From Pachysolen tannophilus NRRL Y-2460 (Eukaryota), in assembly GCA_001661245.1 (NCBI GenBank), contig KV454012.1, positions 402,147 to 466,146 on the forward strand: a stretch of 64,000 nucleotides of DNA. Reading direction: 5' to 3'. Shown one piece after another: positions 1 through 42,000 of the stretch (position 1 is the stretch's first letter; each line of letters starts with the position of its first letter). The position numbers were made by a program, and so were the translations under genes. The notes beneath the pieces are model-generated. The model saw only the letters and a program-made list of their open reading frames with translations. It was not told the origin of the DNA and ran no database searches.

Positions 1-636
1 TCACCTCAGTTGAACAGGCCATTGTTCCAACAACCGCAAGTTAATCAACAATTCCAAGTTCCTCTCCAACAACAGCCACAGCGGCCAGGACAGTTTCCTC
101 CAGGTCCAGGTCCAGGTCAGGTTCCAGTTCATATTCAGCAACAGGCAGATCAGCGTCAAGGAGGTCCTCTTCAACAATTACCACCACATATACAGCTGCA
201 GCAACTTAATCAAAGCAAAGGCGTTAACTTTCAACAGTTTGCACCAAATGGCCAAAACCCGCTGGGTCCGTTTAATCAACAAATGCCTCCTTGGTTAATG
301 CAAGGTGCCCCAATACCACCTCTGTTCATGAATGGTGGTAGAGGCTTACCAATTCCACAACAGCAAGGTGTTCCTCCACCTGGTTTACAACTGCAAAATC
401 CACAGCAACCAGCTCTGGGTCAACAACCACAATTTTCGTCGAATGGAATGCCATCGTTCATCAATGGTCCACCTCCACCTGGTTTCAATGGAGGCCCAGG
501 TTTTGGATTCCCACCACCACCACCGATGTTGTTCCCACAACAACCACAACAACCACATCAGCCTCAACAGCAACAACAGCAACAACAGTTTACCAGGATG
601 AGTGGTCCACTTCCACAGTTTCAACAACGTAAATAA
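1..636 (+). CDS. 3' end of a gene entering the window; Q/P/G/F-rich low-complexity C-terminus, product unknown
   Basis: Frame is open from base 1 (SPQLNRPL...) to TAA at 634-636; no start codon in the window; prion-like composition. Confidence 0.8.
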   Translation, partial: SPQLNRPLFQQPQVNQQFQVPLQQQPQRPGQFPPGPGPGQVPVHIQQQADQRQGGPLQQLPPHIQLQQLNQSKGVNFQQFAPNGQNPLGPFNQQMPPWLMQGAPIPPLFMNGGRGLPIPQQQGVPPPGLQLQNPQQPALGQQPQFSSNGMPSFINGPPPPGFNGGPGFGFPPPPPMLFPQQPQQPHQPQQQQQQQQFTRMSGPLPQFQQRK

Positions 637-1155
637 AGTGCAGCTAAAGTATAGGGTTTTTCACGTACATTATGGGGTTTAAATTTTTTTTTTTTCTTTA
701 TTTTTTTTTTTTTTTTTTTTTTATACCATTTAATACGTCAATACGAAGTATAGTCTCTTTTATTTGATTTAGTTAGCGGATCAGTTGTGTTGTAACTATT
801 AAGAGTTAATTTATTCCCTAAAGCTTGTAGTTCAACATTTAGTACTTCCTAGAAAATATAAAATTCTATTGAAACTGCGTCCAATTGTGTCTGCGGCTCT
901 TTTCTTCAGATCCAAATAGGCGAAAATGAAAAACTAAAGCGATTGAAACGTTAACGGAAAATACTTATTATTACTCGATATTGAGATAAGAGACCCCCTA
1001 TTTTTCATATAAAAACTAGGATTTAAGAGTAGTTATTTCATTCATCTTAATTGTAATAGTTTTGTTCTTTCTTTTTTCTTTTTTCTTTTTTCTTTTTTTT
1101 TTTTTTTTTTTAGCTGGAAAAAAAAAACAAAGTTTATTGAGCTTCTTGAAGGAAA

Positions 1156-2226
1156 ATGTCGAAAGTTGTTGTAGTCGGTGCCGGTGTTACTGGTTTAACA
1201 ACTGCTTACTTCTTATCAGAAAAAGGTTATGATGTTACAATAGTATTTAAGAAGGCCTTTTTTGATGGATATGATGATCTGTGCTATGCTTCCAATTTTG
1301 CAGGTGCCAATTGGCATAGTTTTGCCAGTCATGATGAAATTGAATTACAAGAATATGATAAACCGGCATATAGGAAATTTTTACATTTGGCCAAGACTGA
1401 TCCAAAAGCTGGTATAATATTGAAAAAAAACGTTTCTTATATAGAGAAAGAGACTTTTGCTAAAAAGTATAACAATGACCCTTCCAAAGTTTCACATCCT
1501 TGGTTTAAAGATTTTGTTGAAGACTACAAAATTATTCCTCAGCACGAATTACCAAGTAATATTGGGTTCGGAACTTCTTATCTTGGTGTTGTTATTACCA
1601 CGCCTATTTATCTTAACTACTTGTTACTGAAATGTGTTGAAAACGGAGCTACCTATAAAAGAGCTACTCTTGAACATATTAGAGACGCTGAAAAATATCA
1701 CCATTCGGGTATTAAACCTGATGTTATTGTCAATTGTACAGGACTTTTAGCAGCTAAATTAGGTGGAGTGGAAGATAAGGAAGTGTATCCGATTAGAGGT
1801 CAAATTATTGTAGTTGAAAATGACTGCAAAGATGTCATGAGTGTAAAATTTGAAGATCCCCAAAATCCAGATGATTTGTTATATATTATGCCTAGAAAAG
1901 AAGGTGGTGCTATTATTGGTGGTTGTTTCTTAGCCGATATTTGGAATAATACTCCTGATTACGAAATGGCAAATAGAACTTTGCAAAGAGCTAAAAAATA
2001 TTGCCCAGAATTTGTTGATCCATGTAGTGGAAACCCATCTGAGTTTAAAGTTGTTAGATATCAAGTTGGATTTAGACCTGGTAGAAAAGGAGGACCAAAA
2101 GTTGAAATCGAAGGAAACATCGTTCATAATTACGGAGCTGGTGGTACTGGTTATCAATCCTCATACGGCACATGCTCCAAAGCTGTTTCTTTGGTAGAAC
2201 TGTTTTTAAGCAAACCTAAATTATAA
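1156..2226 (+). CDS. DAO1: D-amino acid oxidase / D-aspartate oxidase family flavoenzyme
   Basis: VVVGAGVTG FAD-binding motif, YASNFAGANW, PIRGQ, GFRPGR, HNYGAGGTGYQSSYG; C-terminal PKL resembles a PTS1. Confidence 0.92.
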   Translation: MSKVVVVGAGVTGLTTAYFLSEKGYDVTIVFKKAFFDGYDDLCYASNFAGANWHSFASHDEIELQEYDKPAYRKFLHLAKTDPKAGIILKKNVSYIEKETFAKKYNNDPSKVSHPWFKDFVEDYKIIPQHELPSNIGFGTSYLGVVITTPIYLNYLLLKCVENGATYKRATLEHIRDAEKYHHSGIKPDVIVNCTGLLAAKLGGVEDKEVYPIRGQIIVVENDCKDVMSVKFEDPQNPDDLLYIMPRKEGGAIIGGCFLADIWNNTPDYEMANRTLQRAKKYCPEFVDPCSGNPSEFKVVRYQVGFRPGRKGGPKVEIEGNIVHNYGAGGTGYQSSYGTCSKAVSLVELFLSKPKL

Positions 2227-2703
2227 TTTGGTAATGTTAGCCGGTTGTCGCTTAGTATCGTCCGTCGCCTATGACCAGTAATTGTGATGTAGTCAAGAGA
2301 TTGAGCCGCATGCGCGTATATATTTCCGCTTAAGTTTAGATATGCAAGTATCCGTTTGAATTTCTATTATTTAATTAGGACTGGTATTAAACCTGTTAAT
2401 CTATCTTATCTACCCTATCTATCTATTGATGTATATATGTGATATATGGAATTTGAAATTGCATGCGATGATCTAAATTCTATGTTTCAGGTAAAAGGTT
2501 TCTGTACTATGTCAAACTCGAGGAAAAGTATTAAATTCCAGTACCACTGCGAGTGTTTAAATGGAGTAGAAGACTAACTTGTTTAAAGACAAGTTATTTA
2601 TTTTATTGGGAAGAAAGATTTAATATTCGATTATTCTCAAGCCGTAAAATTTTATTCATTGGAATGATAGTCTAGATTATAGATTAAAGTATATAGGAGT
2701 GTG

Positions 2704-3073
2704 CTGCGTCTAATTTGCATCTCTTTTTCAGATGCAAATGAGAGAAATCTGATAAATTGGGGTTTATCGAAGTTATGCATGAGGCAAAAACTGAATTAGA
2801 AGTGAGCATCTCCAACAATAAGTTCAAAAGATTAAAGCGTTTTATTTTTTTCACTACAAATGTTGAGAATATTGTGCCTTAGTATATGTGCCTCTGGCAT
2901 AAAGGTTTGGTGTAATTTTTTTGAAAATGATCACCACTGGAAAATTTAAGGTTTCTGTTCTGTTTATCACAGCATATATTTATGTTGGTATTATAATTTC
3001 CACAACAGTTTACCTAAGTTACTTATTCAAAAGAATTGAGTCAATTGAGTCAAATGCAAGCATATATAAGTAA
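2704..3073 (+). pseudogene. Decayed tandem copy of DAO (promoter block plus coding fragments)
   Basis: 2981-3073 reads YVGIIISTTVYLSYLFKRIESIESNASIYK*, versus DAO YLGVVITTPIYLNYLLxKCVENGATYK. About 2870-2912 reads IVP*Y..SGIK(frameshift)FG, versus IIPQHELPSNIGFG. 2704-2746 matches the DAO upstream sequence at 875-925. Confidence 0.7.
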
Positions 3074-3129
3074 AACAAAAAAGGAATTTACAATTTAGAA
3101 ATAATATAATTATACAATTTCAAACAAAA

Positions 3130-3538
3130 CTATCGACATATTAAATTCCATCTACTTAAAAGTTAATAAATTTGAATTAATTTTTTTTTTTTCATCTTTT
3201 CCATTGAATTTATAATTAAGATAACTTACATAAAAGAGAAACTTTTTTTCCCATATTCTTGAACATGTTTCTCATCTGTATGAGTATTAAAAATTTTACG
3301 AGTATAATTACCAACTCTTGCTTTCCCACCTGGATGTAACAATTGTTCATTCCAATATGGATTTGGTTTCCCTGAATATTTATGTTTCTTAACATTTATA
3401 TGTGTATATCCTTCTTGAATATTTTTAACTGAGGTATTGATTGGTACTGCTGGTGGTATATACTATCTTACTGTTAGTAAGACAATTAACTAAGATCAGA
3501 ATGATAATTCAATACATTGTAATTTAAAATCTTACCAT
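3130..3538 (-). CDS. Unannotated 3-exon 85-aa microprotein, paralogue A of an unrecognised family
   Basis: Exons 3538-3536 (ATG only), 3462-3230, 3151-3130. Introns GTAAGA..TACTAAC..TAG and GTAAGT..TATTAAC..AAGTAG. Protein MYIPPAVPINTSVKNIQEGYTHINVKKHKYSGKPNPYWNEQLLHPGGKARVGNYTRKIFNTHTDEKHVQEYGKKSFSFIWNLICR, homologous to 8630-9081. Confidence 0.8.
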
Positions 3539-4021
3539 TATCAATAAACAAGAAACTTTGAGATTAAAACTAACCAATTAACAAAATAAATAAAAGAAAA
3601 ATTAAAAAGAAAAACTAAAAGTAAAAAAAAAAGCTAACCAACTTACTATCCTTAATTAATTAGTTTTAAATTACTAAAGTTTCAATTGGGGGTTAAAACT
3701 GTTCTGTTCATGCATAAAACATCATTTTTAAAAATACAGTATAAAATATTTATTTTTCATTTAATTCAACTTGATGGATTTTCAACATTCTGATAAATTA
3801 AACATTTGTCTCTCTATATTTTCTAAGATTTATCAGCTACTTCTATATATGATTAATCTCATAATATTTATGAAGAAAAATCAAAATTAAAATCAAAAGG
3901 AAAAGGAAAAGAAAAAAAAAAACAATATTAATAGAATGAGAATCTAAGATTAAAAATACAAACAAATTTTTCCAAAACTTTTATTCTATTTTTATTCTTT
4001 TTTCTTATTTTAATGTAACTC

Positions 4022-4526
4022 CTAAAAGCCTGGACCACCTGGACCACCTGGACCACCACCACCACCGCATAACTCTTCTAACAAACAACAGAAACATAAC
4101 GCAGAAAGACTATATATAATCCCCCAATTGTTAGTAGAATAAAATATAATAATCTTAATTTTACTCAAAAAAAAAGCAAAAAGCAAAATAAACTGTTTAA
4201 TTACTTACCATCCACCATAACAGCCACAACAATTATCATTTTGCCGAGGAGGCTGCTGTTGAACATACATTGGTTGTTGTTGTTGGTAATAACCTTGTGG
4301 AGGTTGCTGATAATAACCTTGGGGTGGAGGTTGTTGATAATATCCCTGCGGTTGTTGATGATAATACTATAAGTGTTAGTTCCCTTAATTTAATTTTCAA
4401 ACTCATATAATGAGACCATTCAATTTATTTATAAAACTGTTCAGTAACAATTTTCAAATTATCTAATCAGTTTTAAAAACTAAAAAAAGAAAAGAAAAAG
4501 TTAAACCAATTTTTACTCACACTCAT
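4022..4526 (-). CDS. Unannotated 3-exon 83-aa CYSTM (cysteine-rich tail) protein, YBR016W/YDL012C-like
   Basis: Exons 4526-4521, 4366-4209, 4109-4022. Introns GTGAGT..AACTAAC..TAG and GTAAGT..TACTAAC..TAG. Protein [83 protein letters not shown]. Confidence 0.9.
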
Positions 4527-4646
4527 AATCTATAAGCAATCAATAATTACAATTTTCTTTTATGAAAATAATATAACTTCTCCTAATCCAATCCAATCCC
4601 TAACAATTCTAAAAAAATAATTTAAGAATATTCCAATTATTTCAAT

Positions 4647-4681
<35 letters not shown>

Positions 4682-5370
4682 AAAACGGCTTGGCTACTTT
4701 TATCTGTTTCTTTCTTTATTTTTCTTTTTTTTCTTTATTATGCTGTCAACTACTCGATGAAAGTTGTGTTGCGCGAGCACGACTACAGTTTTTAGTAATA
4801 ATAATGAATCAAAAAGCTACATTTCTGAGTTGATGTTAGCGGTCAGAAAGAAAAAAAAAAAAAAGATGGGTTGGGCCAGTATCTTTTTATCTTTTCTTTG
4901 GTTTTATTCTATTCTTTCCACATGCTATAACTTATAAATTTATATTTTATAAATTATAAGTTTTAGCTATATATATTAAAAGTATTAGAGATTTTTCAAT
5001 TAGTAGTTAATTTATTGATTGAATAGCGTAACTACCGCATTAGGAAGGAAAAATGCGAAAACAAAAAAACCAAATTGCTAAAAAGGGAAATAAACCAAAA
5101 AAAGAAAGCGCAAAAATATTGCTAGCCACAAGGTTTTACAATATTACTTTATTGGGAAGATTTATTTAGCCACTTCCATAATAGGAATTTTTTTGAAAGA
5201 AAAAAAATTCATAACTGTGGCTGGTGTGATGGTATACAATTTTCAACTTTCATTTTTTTTACCGAATTTTTCAACAACCTTTCATATATGGTATGAATTA
5301 ATTTTATATAAATTTATTGGTATTGGTATCAAAAGACTAGAAGAAGACTTTATCATTATCTTTCAGAGCA

Positions 5371-5805
5371 ATGAAAGCTTCAACAGTGACACAGTTTCAG
5401 CAGACTTTTGGTTGTGCTTTGAAAAGACCATGGAAAACTTATAAAGATGGTACTTTATTTTATGGTACTACAAAATCGGGAACAAAGAGAACTCCATTAA
5501 CAACAAAAGGCGGTAACAAAAATTTTTATAAAGGTACTAGGTCCTCTGGTGTTGGGCAACATACAAAGCATGGTGGATATGTAATTGACTGGGCAAAAGT
5601 TAGAACGTTTGTGGTACCTGAAGGATTAAAAGAATGTTCTTTGAACCCTTATGTTAGTTCTAATATGCCTTCAATTAAACATGAATTTAAAGGTTATAAA
5701 AAAGGTCCTGAAGATCCAGATTTGTATTTTGAAAAAATTAAGGAATTCATAGAGAACGGTAAGGTTGATTATCCAGTAAGTAAGAACTTTCTTGAAAGAG
5801 GTTAA
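5371..5805 (+). CDS. MRPL27: Mitochondrial ribosomal protein mL41
   Basis: [49 protein letters not shown]. Confidence 0.93.
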
Positions 5806-5852
5806 TTGAATTTTATCTATCTACTTTTTATTTTATTTTTATATCTTTTTGG

Positions 5853-5862
5853 CATGTAAATA
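5853..5862 (+). promoter_or_regulatory. Puf3-type 3'UTR element
   Basis: CATGTAAATA matches CNUGUAHAUA, about 50 nt after the stop of a mitoribosomal gene. Confidence 0.65.
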
Positions 5863-5975
5863 AATATATATATATATATATTACCCTTGGGTTTTTTTTT
5901 CTTTTTTTTTTCAGTTTTTTAAAGAAATTTTTAAATATTCTTTTTTCTTTCTTTGTTTCTGATTAAAGGATTATA

Positions 5976-6698
5976 TCAAGCATCAACCATTTCTTGGTCT
6001 TCATCGTTAGTCTCTTCAATATCGTTATCTTCAATTTCCTCTGTAGCATCACGATCATCTGCTTCTGCGAAACTTCTATTTGCAATGAAACTTGCTTCTT
6101 GAATAACTGGTTCATCGTCTTGTTTCGTGAGAGTGCTGATATCAATTTTGCTATCATTAACTGTACTAATTTTCTTATTTACCTTCTTTTCATCGTTGTC
6201 ATCATTGTTATCATCATCATTAATTACTATTACTCCCTTATTATCATTTCCAACAATGCTGTTTTTCTTATTGGTAAAAGCCAATATTCCTTGGAAATCT
6301 CTTGCACCATTCCTAGATTTTACAACTTCATCTACTTCTTTCTTATCATCATCTATTGTCACTGAATCATGATTTTCAAGAGGTTCTTTTAAAGTTATCT
6401 TATTCTTTGCATATAATTCACCAACTTTATATCTCTTAGGAACAACATCAGCTAAAAACATTAATGATGGATTTTGCTTAACAACTTGATAAAAATCTTC
6501 ATAATTTATCTTCTTACGACCCATTCTTCTAGTTTCTATAGAAGCTTTTGAAGTTAAATCTTGAACAAATAATTCCGTAGCTTTTGTTATTAATTGTATA
6601 CTGGCAGATGATACACCTGAATAGTCTGGGTCAAGCTTAACGATTTTTCTAATTCTTGCCTGAGGCAACGTTGTTGATTCATTACTAGATGATGACAT
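5976..6698 (-). CDS. DPB3: Histone-fold protein, DNA polymerase epsilon subunit Dpb3/Dls1-like
   Basis: LPQARIRKIVKLDPDY...KATELFVQDL...RKKINYEDF...LMFLADVVP NF-YC-type histone fold; acidic tail. Confidence 0.75.
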   Translation of the reverse strand: MSSSSNESTTLPQARIRKIVKLDPDYSGVSSASIQLITKATELFVQDLTSKASIETRRMGRKKINYEDFYQVVKQNPSLMFLADVVPKRYKVGELYAKNKITLKEPLENHDSVTIDDDKKEVDEVVKSRNGARDFQGILAFTNKKNSIVGNDNKGVIVINDDDNNDDNDEKKVNKKISTVNDSKIDISTLTKQDDEPVIQEASFIANRSFAEADDRDATEEIEDNDIEETNDEDQEMVDA

Positions 6699-7165
6699 GA
6701 TGATTAATAAGCTCTTTGCTTTAACGAAACGCGATCAAAAATAAATCACAGAAAAATGAACCTCGTCAAACTTTTCAATACTATTGATCCAGTCTTATGA
6801 AAATTACCTCTGAGCAAACTAACTCAGTTAGTCCTCTCTTTGAATTAAATCAGCAATAGCAAAGAAGAAGAAATAAAGAAACAGAAAAATGAAAAATGAA
6901 ATAAAAAGGAGATAAAAGTGAAAAGAATAATTAATTATACTGTAAACTCTCTCATGCACTATTGGATTTAATTTTTCACGTCTTTGAAAAGATCTATTTC
7001 TTTGAAGAATTACACCAAAAGAAATAAAAAAAAATTAACATTTTAGATATTTACAACTAATAGAGATTCCAAAGAGTTTCTTGCTTGGCGAAAGATTTTT
7101 TTGCAAGCTCAAATTGATTAATGAATTGTTATAATTTTAAAAATTAGTTAGCCAACTTTATTATA

Positions 7166-7171
7166 ACGCGT
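7166..7171. promoter_or_regulatory. MCB element in the divergent DPB3/RFC2 promoter
   Basis: ACGCGT about 60 nt upstream of the RFC2 ATG; an ACGCG core also lies at about 6729 near DPB3. Confidence 0.55.
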
Positions 7172-7230
7172 TTTCTATTCTATTGAAGAAATAATAGTTA
7201 ATACTTAAAATACTAAGATCGGACTGGAAA

Positions 7231-8501
7231 ATGTCAGTGGTAACCTCATTTACAGCATCAGATGGCAAACTGACTTCTTCTGATATTGCAGATAGATTGG
7301 AGAGAATGCCATGGGTGGAAAAATAGTATGTGTTTATATATATATATATATTTTAATTTTTGCAATCTTTTTTTTCCATGAAACTTAACTAACTAAACTA
7401 CATAAATCTAGTCGTCCAAAGAAATTAGATGAAGTTTCTTCACAAGATCATGCTATCCAAATTTTGAAGAGAAATTTACAGACTGCAAATTTACAACATA
7501 TGCTTTTTTATGGACCTCCGGGTACTGGTAAGACTTCAACAATTTTAGCTTTGGCGAAACAATTATACGGTCCAAATTTATTCAAGTCTAGAGTTTTAGA
7601 ATTGAATGCTTCAGATGAAAGAGGTATTTCTATCGTAAGGGAGAAGGTGAAAAATTTTGCAAGATTATCTGTGTCAAATCCATCAAAGGAAGATTTAGAG
7701 AATTATCCATGTCCTCCTTATAAGTTAATCATATTAGATGAAGCAGATTCTATGACAACTGATGCTCAATCTGCATTAAGAAGAACTATGGAAACTTTTT
7801 CAAATGTTACTAGATTTTGTCTCATTTGTAATTATATAACAAGAATCATTGATCCATTAGCATCTCGTTGTTCGAAATTTAGATTTAAATTATTGGAAAG
7901 TGAACAAAGTTTAAACAGATTAAAATTTATTGCTGAAAGGGAAAATGTTAAATTGGAAAATAATAGTGAAGATGAAGTATTACAGGAAATTTTGAAAATA
8001 GCAAATGGTGATTTGAGAAAAGCTATAACTTTTTTACAAAGTGCTAGTAGATTATATTCTCTCAATATTAAAAACGTTGAAGATCAAGATGAAGATGGGG
8101 ATGTCAAACTTAATGATGTAGATATTAATGGTGGATCATCAGAATTTATTACCATATCAGAAGTTAGAGAAATTGCAGGTTTGCTTCCAGAGACAAAAAT
8201 CAAACTGTTATTGTCTACAATTCAATCTAAGAATTTGGATCTGATTTTCCAATTTCTTAAAGATGATATTTTCTTGGATGGATATAATGGTGCTATTATA
8301 ATTGAGACAATTCACGATAGATTGCTATTGGGTAATGAATATGAGGAAAATGAAGAAAATATTTCATTGAGATTAAGCACTAAGCAAAAAATTGAGATTT
8401 CCGAAATCATTTTTGATACGGATTTGAAATTGATCAATGGTGGTGATGAATCATTACAAGTTTTGAATATGGTTTTGAAAATCTCCCAAATTTTGAAATA
8501 A
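7231..8501 (+). CDS. RFC2: Replication factor C subunit 2, two exons (7231-7325, 7412-8501)
   Basis: Removing intron 7326-7411 (GTATGT..AACTAAC..TAG) restores PWVEKYRPK; GPPGTGKTS, ELNASDERGI, YPCPPYKLIILDEAD, SRC motifs. Confidence 0.95.
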
Positions 8502-8629
8502 ATAATTTGATTAGTTAAAAAAAAAAAAAAATACAAAAAAATGGATTGAAACAAACACTTTATACCCATTTCACATTGTAAAAAATTTTTTTGAAAAAAG
8601 TCTCATAAAAACATCATATATTATATTGT

Positions 8630-9081
8630 TCATTCCTTTTTGTTAAGAAAATTTTGGACCCTATAATAGCAAAAGCAATTTTTTTTTTTGCCGTTAGTAA
8701 ATAAATTAAGAAATAGATTTTGATAAAATTTCAAAATATATATAATTATACTTACAACCATTTACCACCTTTCATAGCATACTGTTTAAGATGATCTTGA
8801 TCAGTATGGCCATCTATAAAAGCTTGTACTTTTGCTTTTACATCATTATTTGGATTTGCAATTTGTTGATTATAGTAAGGAACCGGAGCACCCCAAAACT
8901 TGTGAATTTTATCACCATCTGCAGTAACAGAATAACCGTATTGTAAAGTCTTGATAGAAGTATCACTTGGTTGCGATGGTGGAATGTACTTGTGTAAAAA
9001 AAAAAAAATTATGTTAGTCTAGTGAGATATTCATGACTATAAATTCTATAGCATATATAATATTTCACTTACAGATCCCAT
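8630..9081 (-). CDS. Unannotated 3-exon 90-aa microprotein, paralogue B of an unrecognised family
   Basis: Exons 9081-9073, 8988-8756, 8660-8630. Introns GTAAGT..GACTAAC..AAG and GTAAGT..TACTAAC..TAG. Protein MGSYIPPSQPSDTSIKTLQYGYSVTADGDKIHKFWGAPVPYYNQQIANPNNDVKAKVQAFIDGHTDQDHLKQYAMKGGKWLVQNFLNKKE. Confidence 0.85.
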
Positions 9082-39000: not shown

Positions 39001-42000
39001 ACCATGACTTTCTTTACGAAATAGGGAAGAAACAACCAAAGAATTTGAGCTATTCAACTCTTATACCTCTAAACTTACACTTGAACTGTAGTAGAATATT
39101 GCTACAGTTAAGAGATTATCCGCTTGCGTTATTACATCTTCCGAATGATGACACTAATTCTTCGAAATCCATTGATATAAATGGAGATATAATAATAGGT
39201 GAACTCTTCTATGCTCCAGAAGAACTAAGATTAGTTTATGTTCCTTTTGTGAAAAAAATAAAGCTTCCAGTTGATTCTGTTTTTTCTTTGAACGTTCCAA
39301 GAACTTTGACATCAATCAAGTTTTATACAAATTTAAGAATCACCGTCAGTTCTTCAAATTCTAGTCAAATAGCATGGTGTAAATCTTTCCAACCTGGTAT
39401 ATCTTATGCTATGTCACGTTTTGACGTATTAACAAAACCTCCAATTGATAGATCCCCAAAAATCGGATTTTGGGACAAATTCAGACTTAATTTTCATGGA
39501 AAATTCGATTTCAACTTCAAAAAAGATTTAGTATTGTTTATCAAAGGTTCATCAAGTCCATATAACCTTATTGAAAAGGGAGCTGGATTTGCTTTTTGTT
39601 GGGACAATGAAGTCAATTTAAGAATTAATCACTATGATAGTCCTGATAAATTTATGGTTATCACCTCGAAGAGATTCAAAATTGCAATTCCAAATTTTTC
39701 TTCAGTTCAAAAGCAAAATTGGAAAGCTTATAGAGACCGAATTTACAATTTGAAGGAGGATGATGGCAATATGGGTAACACCAATATAGATTATCTAAAA
39801 GTTTTGATGAAACTAAGGGATGAAAAAATTGTTTGGAAATTAGGTATGCTTTTTGAGCGCGATGCGAACAATGACAGGTATGCCACACCTGGTAGAAGTG
39901 CTAGAACTAGTAGCTTTAAACCTCACTATGAAGTTCTGTTGAGAAATCCTGTTTATGTTAAAGATGGAGAATATTATGATTCATATAAAGGTTTTAGATC
40001 AGATTATGTCCACATGGCTGTTAGTGTTGATTCATCAGGTCCTTCAAGCTATAACTCTGTTCATTTGTCACCAATGTCATTTGCGCATTTTTTTCCTTGG
40101 TGGTCGTTATTCGGTAATAGTATTTCTGTACCAGCTAAAACAGGAAAGCTTTTTGAGAATAAATTATTAGACTCAAGACGCTCTATAAAGTTTGGTGCTC
40201 ATTTATTCAGTATGAAATATCAATTGAAACTAAAACATTTATTTATTGGTCATTTATACAGTCATTCAAGTTCAGAAGAATTGAAAAAGCATAATAAGTT
40301 GGCATTTACTGGCTTAAAGGCACAGTTCAGTAATTTCAGTATGGATTTGCATCAGCGAAAACAACAAACTAGATACGTTAATACCGAACTTAATGTTTGT
40401 AAAAGTATTTGGAAAATGAAGATGAATCAAGGAGAGCTTGACTTCGAAAATGCAGATATCAGATTAATATCCGCTTTATTTAATGATAATTCGATTGAAA
40501 GTTATTTAGCTGAAAACTTAGGAATTGATACTTCCGCTTCGTCTTCAGAAAATGTATCAACTGCTGCTGCATCAAGTAATTTTCAAAATATGTCGTCTTG
40601 CCCTACTATGGAGTCAGGGTCATGGATTGATTTTGATGATTATGTGGAACTAGAATCGCCTCCAATAAAATCGAGATTTCCAAAAGTAAAATTGTTGGAA
40701 CTAGTGTCCTCGCCAAGGTTTTCCTACTTTAAGCAGCTGGATGCTGATAACGCACATGATGATAATCCTCTACCCTACCCTTTTGGTGATGAACCTTCTC
40801 ATGAGTGTTTGATTGGTGAAAATCATCCAGAGAGAACGCAAGAAGTTTTACTTGAGAATAGGGCAAAAATCATCGAAGACCAAATTACCACGAATGAAGT
40901 ATCTATACATGCTTTACTGAGTGATCCAACGATGGCTCAAGAGCCTTTGGCTGAAGGTAAAGCTAAACAGTTGGAGAACGAAATCCATATTTTGAAACAC
41001 AAGTTGCACATTGTACGTAGGGTTTTAACTGATATTTCAATATCAGGTAAAGCTGATGAGCAAAGCATTTATGAAGAAGATACTGCGGAATCTGAAATTT
41101 TTAGGTCTCGCTCCAATTTCTCGATGGATTCACGTAGTTATTCAATTGCTCCATCAATGAGCAATAGTAACATGCCTGTAATCAAAACCTTAACGAGCCG
41201 TGCTTCCTTCAGAGAAATGAAAGAGGCATCTTCACCTAATGCAATTTCAACTTTCAACAATAGGTTCGTTATTCATAACATGAAATTGAAATGGAATAAT
41301 AGTATTAGAAATATACTATTTCAGTACATTCAAAAAGTTAGTGATAGAAGATCACTAGTTTTTTTCATGGGAAGAAAAGCTGTTAATTTTGCAGAAAATT
41401 TGATTAGTCAAACACTTTCCAAAGGTAATGATGAAAAGCTACAGTTCGATGAATTTAAATATGAGTTTGAATCTCCATCTGATACAATAAGTAACTTCGA
41501 TCATGACTTGAGATTTCTTCAGTCAGAGAATGAAGAGACCGTAGATCATTATTTGTTCAAACTAGTTGCTCCGCAAATTCAGTTAGTTAGTGATGAAGCT
41601 CCAGATTCTTGCTTGCTAATAACTTGCCGTGATGTTACAATGAAGGTTATCTCTGTAAGTTCGAATAGAGAAAGCGAAGCTTTTATAACTGAAAGTGAGG
41701 AGGTTTCAAGGCTATTAGAAACAAGACATGGGGTTTTATTGAATAACGCACAATTTTATGTTTTGGATAAAGAAAAGATTCTGAATAATAGTTACGGGAT
41801 TTTTAGCACTGACTCCGAGCAGTGGCCACCATGGCTAGCCGTTGAGGTATGTTATGACCCTCTTTCTCTTGAAAATGCATTAGTTATTGAAAGAACCACT
41901 CTTGGATTCATTTACACAAAGCCCAATTCATTATATATGTCTAATGAGATACTGAAATCTGGGAAAAAAGATGAAGTTTTGAATTTTAAGACTTTGCATA

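Follow-up and report, generated by a model that had tools for sequence, protein, structure and literature searches.

Two probable spliced paralogues in Pachysolen tannophilus from an unstudied family of small yeast proteins

Main

Do two short, apparently split coding regions that stand 5 kb apart in the yeast Pachysolen tannophilus NRRL Y-2460 represent real genes and, if so, to what family do they belong and how old is the pair? Both lie on the minus strand of a 64,000-nucleotide (nt) stretch of contig KV454012.1 (NCBI GenBank assembly GCA_001661245.1, positions 402,147 to 466,146), hereafter the window, whose own numbering is used throughout; we call them gene A (3130–3538) and gene B (8630–9081). 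The first-pass annotation, made from the letters alone, had described them as a pair of hidden three-exon paralogues of an unrecognised family. We consider it very likely that A and B are genuine spliced protein-coding paralogues with the identity and history set out here. On profile evidence they are members of a conserved family of small proteins, that of Candida albicans orf19.3064.1/C1_03660W, which has neither a Pfam model nor a characterised member.

Gene models

When rebuilt from their coordinates, both models had the architecture that had been described, with a first coding exon of 3 or 9 nt, a middle exon of 233 nt and a phase-2 last intron. Gene A has a coding sequence of 258 nt for 85 amino acids (aa). 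Its exon 1 (3536–3538) is the ATG alone, with an A at −3; intron 1 (3463–3535; 73 nt, phase 0) reads GTAAGA...TACTAAC...AG, exon 2 (3230–3462) comprises 77 codons plus 2 nt (translation P0001), intron 2 (3152–3229; 78 nt, phase 2) reads GTAAGT...TATTAAC...AG, and exon 3 (3130–3151) closes the protein with LICR before the stop codon at 3130–3132. Gene B, with a coding sequence of 273 nt for 90 aa, opens with a 9-nt exon encoding M-G-S (9073–9081), followed by intron 1 (8989–9072; 84 nt, phase 0; GTAAGT...GACTAAC...AG), exon 2 (8756–8988; translation P0002), intron 2 (8661–8755; 95 nt, phase 2; GTAAGT...TACTAAC...AG) and exon 3 (8630–8660; stop codon 8630–8632), which encodes a tail without Cys.

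All four introns carry a GTAAG donor, an AG acceptor and a branch-like site (TACTAAC, TATTAAC or GACTAAC) 11–33 nt from the acceptor, and each contains stops when read unspliced. Exon 2 of gene A holds no Met and is preceded by an in-frame TAG that contains the acceptor AG of intron 1; the start codon must therefore come by splicing, with no upstream extension available. Both genes are missing from the window's list of ATG-started open reading frames (ORFs) of at least 50 aa. Pachysolen reads CUG as Ala; because neither gene contains a CTG codon, this code is irrelevant here.

Independent support came from a hidden Markov model (HMM) built from 78 relatives, with Pachysolen, Kuraishia and the family protein P0005 excluded, and run against 1705 targets, namely the two spliced products and all six-frame stop-to-stop ORFs of the window. 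Spliced A (E 9.7e-15, 51.1 bits) and spliced B (9.7e-12, 41.5 bits) scored highest, their unspliced middle exons also matched (A, 1.3e-11, 41.1 bits; B, 1.3e-10, 37.9 bits), and the best remaining target reached E 0.61 and 6.9 bits. That a model made without them picks out A and B in the window excludes a chance likeness. Splicing of intron 2 thus raised gene A by 10 bits and restored the family C terminus with its penultimate Cys, which gene A has only once this intron is removed; the alignment of spliced gene A with its relatives covers the full length, the Cys-x end included. The strongest evidence so far for a real intron 2 in gene A is this gain, together with the residue-for-residue match at the C terminus. 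A further tblastn match in the window, at 39497–39616 (best E 0.019), covered only the N-terminal motif within another reading frame and was judged to be chance.

As to whether the genes were hidden, the description fits one of them. The middle exon of gene B matches, at 100% identity, the 90-aa hypothetical protein PACTADRAFT_48523 of P. tannophilus NRRL Y-2460 (P0003), and the three-exon translation equals that protein letter for letter. The product of gene A was found in none of the four protein searches that could have shown it, one of which ran through all representatives of a 15-billion-protein collection with a profile built in part on the middle exon of gene A itself. The product therefore seems to be lacking in public protein sets.

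Paralogy of A and B

The middle-exon translations of A and B are identical at 28 of 75 positions (BLASTP, E 7e-17), in good agreement with the approximately 27 of 77 counted by eye in the first-pass annotation. Between the two genes at the DNA level we found no similarity beyond low-complexity A/T runs, which bears out the view of old paralogues conserved as proteins while their DNA diverged. Identity at codon positions 1, 2 and 3 is 54, 61 and 41%, the pattern expected of coding sequence. Pairwise, the proportions of synonymous and non-synonymous differences (pS and pN) are 0.738 and 0.415, and the corresponding divergences are approximately 3.1 (dS) and 0.61 (dN); because synonymous sites are saturated, dN/dS between the copies, which had been proposed as a check on function, is uninformative.

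Intron 1 occupies the same place in both copies, immediately before the Tyr codon of YIPP, and in the pairwise alignment intron 2 interrupts aligned codons, so that the second introns of A and B are likely to be of common origin. These matching positions suggest that the split gene structure probably predates the duplication. The equal length of the two 233-nt exons is, in the same alignment, partly the product of two compensating 2-codon indels. Upstream of A, B and the family gene of a Candida-clade contig described below (L001), a scan for promoter motifs (stress-response element, TATA, CCAAT, Yap, heat-shock element, Mig1 and others) found nothing in common beyond AT-rich noise.

A family of unstudied yeast proteins

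A HMMER profile search of 1.84 billion representatives returned 6 proteins at E ≤ 1e-3; on iteration, 45 proteins at E ≤ 0.01 emerged among 406 candidates and, in a second iterated search, 50 proteins at E ≤ 0.1 among 425 candidates. Their names are throughout 'hypothetical' or 'uncharacterized', where they have any. Annotated uncharacterized members occur in more than 20 named yeast species, among them Kuraishia capsulata, Suhomyces tanzawaensis, Yamadazyma tenuis, several Scheffersomyces, Sungouiella intermedia, Candida viswanathii, C. metapsilosis, Priceomyces carsonii, Metschnikowia species, Candidozyma auris and [Candida] anglica; a cluster look-up added C. albicans, C. parapsilosis, C. 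orthopsilosis, Lodderomyces elongisporus, Meyerozyma and [C.] zeylanoides. We take these species to represent the CUG-Ser1 (Candida) clade, Pachysolen and one genus of the Pichiaceae. The profile matches included no Saccharomyces-type yeast, in searches that were word-seeded and not exhaustive.

Members are 67–102 aa long, mostly 73–79 aa, and 85–91 aa in Pachysolen and Kuraishia; the sole longer model, of 154 aa, is an upstream-extended version of a 73-aa protein. Several models, Meyerozyma-like ones among them (P0040, P0084–P0086 with 154 aa, P0044 with 93 aa and P0082 with 94 aa), extend upstream of the conserved M-x-I-P-E start, and look like over-long ORF calls rather than fusions.

Searches for a characterised family gave no significant match. 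Pfam returned no family for P0001 or P0002 and only scattered sub-threshold matches for 9 and 36 members; sequence-profile searches of the PDB with the family gave nothing significant (best E 0.34–0.68), and Foldseek, run against the PDB with the structural model described below, gave no match (best E 1.2). In the ESM Atlas, gene B and the C. albicans member found nothing at 0.9 or above. A metagenome scan led by gene B gave 238 pattern matches, none of them confirmed, and one led by a Candida-clade member gave two loci, of which L001 was examined. Full-text literature searches on four identifiers of family members found no paper. The family is therefore unrecognised in the sense that Pfam and the PDB hold no match to it; its members are already on record as uncharacterized proteins, and it is simply unstudied, not unseen.

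Synteny and age of the duplication

L001 is a 147.6-kb metagenome contig of a Candida-clade yeast in which a 73-aa family gene forms one uninterrupted ORF. At 932–4553 of that contig, the family gene lies between genes for the mitochondrial ribosomal protein MRP-L27 and a D-amino-acid-oxidase-type (DAO) protein, with a histone-fold gene beyond MRP-L27. Gene A shares this order of DAO, family gene, MRP-L27 and histone-fold gene (window 1156–6698) and, as in L001, is convergent with DAO. In the window, the DAO-type flavin adenine dinucleotide oxidoreductase is encoded at 1156–2226 on the plus strand (Pfam DAO, 7.6e-36; 43% identical to its L001 counterpart), MRP-L27 at 5371–5805 on the plus strand (Pfam MRP-L27, 7.6e-39; 47% identical) and the histone-fold protein of CBF/NF-Y type at 5976–6698 on the minus strand (43% identical). 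The shared setting, compared against this one outside locus, marks gene A as the positional orthologue of the Candida-clade gene. Relative to MRP-L27, the histone-fold gene is inverted between Pachysolen and L001, and a Cys-rich gene in the interval from DAO to the histone-fold gene is found in Pachysolen only, not in L001.

Gene B lies elsewhere, 5 kb away, between a replication factor C ORF and a ClC-type ORF. An unrooted maximum-likelihood tree of 40 rows (36 rows of the family alignment plus gene A, gene B, Kuraishia P0004 and P0005, with redundant or truncated stored proteins excluded) split gene B and Kuraishia from gene A, P0005 and the 36 Candida-clade rows with support of 100/94. This grouping suggests that the A/B duplication predates the split between Pachysolen and Kuraishia. 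Gene B is an old duplicate in which the Cys-containing tail has been exchanged for a Lys-rich one.

Several observations weigh against this account of the two genes. Exon 1 of gene A is a bare ATG, the branch site of its intron 2 is TATTAAC and not TACTAAC, and a second acceptor lies 3 nt upstream of that used in the model, the use of which would add one residue. Four public DNA runs, from one study and one sample, are genomic contigs and carry no splice joints. In the family-guided alignment a 4-residue indel sets the intron 2 positions of A and B 4 codons apart, so that their homology is not certain. The tree was drawn from only 77 columns; its Kuraishia and P0005 branches are long, and gene A deviates in composition. 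A separate observation concerns the contigs of the four runs, which carry a single additional base, relative to the window, in each of the homopolymer runs at 3180, 8678 and 8995; all three differences lie inside introns of gene A or B, with none in the exons, and they are probably homopolymer-length assembly noise.

Conserved features and predicted structure

In an alignment of 42 members, G21, P38 and H69 (in the numbering of gene B) never vary and are present in both A and B, and P7, P10, Q19, Y22, T31, Y34, T39, P40, F60, T65, D66, K71, Y73 and a C-terminal Cys are at least 90% conserved. A and B are collinear with the family over its whole 70–100 aa, through the motifs QxGY, K-x-H/Q-K-Y/F, P-x-P and T-D-x-x-H-x-K-x-Y. 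Isoelectric points (pI) of 7.9–9.4 and grand averages of hydropathy (GRAVY) of −0.8 to −1.2 mark the proteins as basic and hydrophilic.

A penultimate Cys ends 87 of the 99 stored family proteins, a redundant set that contains nearly identical cluster members as well as some models that are truncated or wrongly extended, and is the sole Cys in 82; the last residue is R in 26, K in 23, H in 19, N in 16 and Q in 3. The 12 proteins without it are gene B, Kuraishia P0004, P0005 (with its Cys at −3) and nine models that look truncated or frame-shifted. With its lone Cys at −2 and one of R, K, H, N or Q as the last residue, this C terminus is neither a CaaX box, which would have Cys at −4 before aliphatic residues, nor a Rab-type CC or CXC prenylation motif. 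A PCNA-box-like Q-x-x-A-x-x-F-F, seen by eye in Candida-clade members, is not kept in either Pachysolen copy and was dropped.

In five relatives the hydrophobic moment over the C-terminal 18 residues is 0.49–0.58, versus 0.30 in gene B. An AlphaFold2 model of gene B, made with a 42-row alignment, was weak (predicted local distance difference test (pLDDT) 65, predicted TM-score (pTM) 0.23); it places residues 1–43 outside any secondary structure, followed by helices at 49–64 and 67–88. A homodimer prediction with two copies of P0019 gave no answer (score 0.00) and speaks neither for nor against binding.

Relatives in Candida albicans and Kuraishia

C. albicans C1_03660W belongs to the same family as A and B by profile and is collinear with them over its full length, at approximately 35% identity. 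It resembles gene A in its QxGY, K-T-H-K-Y, P-T-P and TDxxHxKxY motifs and in its Cys-x end, and the Candida-clade relative in L001 shares gene A's DAO/MRP-L27 neighbourhood. It differs from A and B in being 79 aa long and encoded by an uninterrupted ORF, a structure directly seen only in L001, and differs from the Pachysolen proteins, Kuraishia and P0005 in lacking their insert of approximately 11 residues after the P-x-P motif. The closest named relative of gene B is Kuraishia capsulata KUCA_T00002584001 (P0004, 91 aa, 'uncharacterized'), which shares its S-Y-[IV]-P-P N-terminal start, the same insert, the absence of the C-terminal Cys and a common clade (100/94), but is only 35% identical and has a very long branch (1.95).

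In the tables that we used from two published datasets, C1_03660W/orf19.3064.1 has RNA levels of 28–33 transcripts per million (TPM) and ribosome footprints of 12.7–50 TPM (PMC11878023, PMC10580883). The gene description in these tables gives orthologues only (CPAR2_108915, CANTEDRAFT_102387, DEHA2B06776g, psti_CGOB_00149 and B9J08_004667), with the Saccharomyces cerevisiae orthologue field empty (PMC11878023, PMC10580883), and presumably comes from the Candida Genome Database. In the RNA table of a third study, the gene is higher in a deletion of cyr1, which encodes adenylyl cyclase, than in the wild type (log2 fold change +1.43, adjusted P 8e-41; PMC8389844). These data indicate that the C. 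albicans member is transcribed, occupied by ribosomes and more abundant when cyclic AMP (cAMP) signalling is absent.

Possible functions and rival explanations

We tentatively favour, as a possible though doubtful reading of the sequences, a disordered basic adaptor that would be tethered through a C-terminal amphipathic helix and an acylated Cys. The N-terminal half would be proline-rich and unstructured, with the short motifs PxxP, QxGY and K-T-H-K-Y-x-D-x-P-T-P, and the C-terminal half would form a helical hairpin, the last helix amphipathic and basic and ending in the lone Cys. In A-type members this helix, together with an S-acylated penultimate Cys, would tether the protein to a membrane or a partner; B-type members would be soluble or would act as competitors. 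Small peripheral membrane proteins that are held by a C-terminal amphipathic helix and an S-acylated Cys form a general class. The family resembles that class in its lone conserved Cys near the C terminus, the hydrophobic or amphipathic stretch before it and the flanking basic residues; it differs in that there is no sequence relationship, and its acylation is a putative one, suggested by sequence context. De-repression of the C. albicans gene on deletion of adenylyl cyclase could point to a role at low signalling through cAMP and protein kinase A (PKA), in starvation or stress. A fuller version, in which lipid-anchored A-type microproteins specific to Candida, Pichia and Pachysolen would recruit partners through the proline-rich motifs at low PKA activity, and the anchor-less B-type kept by Pachysolen and Kuraishia would serve as a soluble competitor or regulator, we regard as unlikely in its entirety. 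Against these proposals, the structural model is weak, and the Cys is missing from gene B and the Kuraishia protein. On the literature side, the identifiers of the C. albicans member occur, among 12 supplement files of PMC8389844, in at least a variant table and an RNA table, and are missing from 6 supplement files of PMC8645108.

A first rival would be a soluble, disordered stress or quiescence protein of the hydrophilin kind, which would protect or buffer other molecules and use the Cys as a redox-sensitive thiol and not as a lipid anchor. The strong hydrophilicity and basic charge, a half of the protein predicted to have no secondary structure, the response of the C. albicans member to loss of adenylyl cyclase and the absence of a transmembrane segment or a fold match all agree with it; conservation here is position-specific, however, in that G, P and H residues do not vary and over ten columns reach 90% or above, unlike that of typical composition-driven hydrophilins, and the conserved hydrophobic C-terminal helix would be left to explain, so we think a hydrophilin improbable. 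The protein could instead be a small accessory subunit that folds only as part of a larger complex, perhaps a respiratory or ribosomal one of the mitochondrion that respiratory yeasts have retained; such subunits typically combine an extended N terminus with a helical hairpin and are modelled, as here, at low pTM and moderate local confidence. The range of the family, seen only in the Candida clade, Kuraishia and Pachysolen and with no S. cerevisiae orthologue in the C. albicans tables, would fit such a subunit, as would the position of gene A beside MRP-L27 in two lineages. That adjacency may be mere synteny, though, and no chain of a solved structure matched in either the profile or the Foldseek searches; the N terminus opens directly with a conserved motif and shows no obvious presequence. 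A subunit of this kind is a distinctly unlikely explanation.

The first-pass annotation had suggested that the shared His and Asp residues (HK and HTDxxH) might bind a metal, possibly, as we would add, with the C-terminal Cys. This idea weakened on alignment, as only H69 is invariant in the 42 members and the other two His vary: the first His of HTD is H in 69, K in 17, Q in 8 and N in 2 of 96 motif matches among the 99 stored proteins, and the His of HK is frequently Q or E. With D66 and the Cys at least 90% conserved, a site of His, Asp and Cys is conceivable, perhaps across a dimer, yet gene B and Kuraishia lack the Cys, which leaves too few invariant ligands per chain. T-D-x-E/D-H also fits a helix N-cap, by the capping-box rule, at the start of the modelled helix 67–88. 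We judge metal binding very unlikely. A different kind of alternative would have gene A silent or decaying and only gene B functional, which would explain why annotators missed A. The absence of its product from the protein searches, the single-codon first exon and the variant branch site speak for this. Its frame is nevertheless intact over three exons with every splice signal in place, it outscores gene B on the relatives' HMM, it still has the penultimate Cys and sits in the ancestral syntenic position, and its identity to gene B follows the coding pattern across codon positions. That gene A is dead is, on this balance, highly improbable.

Neighbouring features

Between A and B, a third small three-exon gene lies at 4022–4526 on the minus strand and encodes 83 aa. 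Its exons (4526–4521, 6 nt; 4366–4209, 158 nt; and 4109–4022) have splice signals as in A and B, and it resembles them in its tiny first exon and phase-2 last intron. In its product, Q/P/Y-rich repeats lead into a Cys-rich tail and then a Gly/Pro end; it resembles the CYSTM type of small Cys-rich tail proteins, but Pfam gave no match when the exon translations were searched one by one. The replication factor C small-subunit ORF beside gene B (7500–8501, plus strand) opens right at its Walker A region (M-L-F-Y-G-P-P-G-T-G-K), and its N terminus is probably encoded on an upstream exon, which would make it another intron-split gene. At the left edge of the window, an open-ended ORF (1–636, plus strand) has an extremely Q/P-rich, low-complexity C terminus and belongs to a protein that begins outside the window.

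Discussion

The practical gain is a correction to annotation, in which the apparently unannotated gene A is the positional orthologue of the Candida-clade gene, and the annotated gene B its diverged paralogue. It also illustrates that microprotein genes can escape ORF-based callers when the first exon is a bare ATG and the last intron is in phase 2; the Cys-rich gene between A and B is a third example. Nothing in the analysis suggests a surprising mechanism. The family spans many Candida-clade yeasts, clinically important ones included, and, being conserved and translated in C. albicans and having neither a Pfam model nor a structure, it offers a clean target for functional work.

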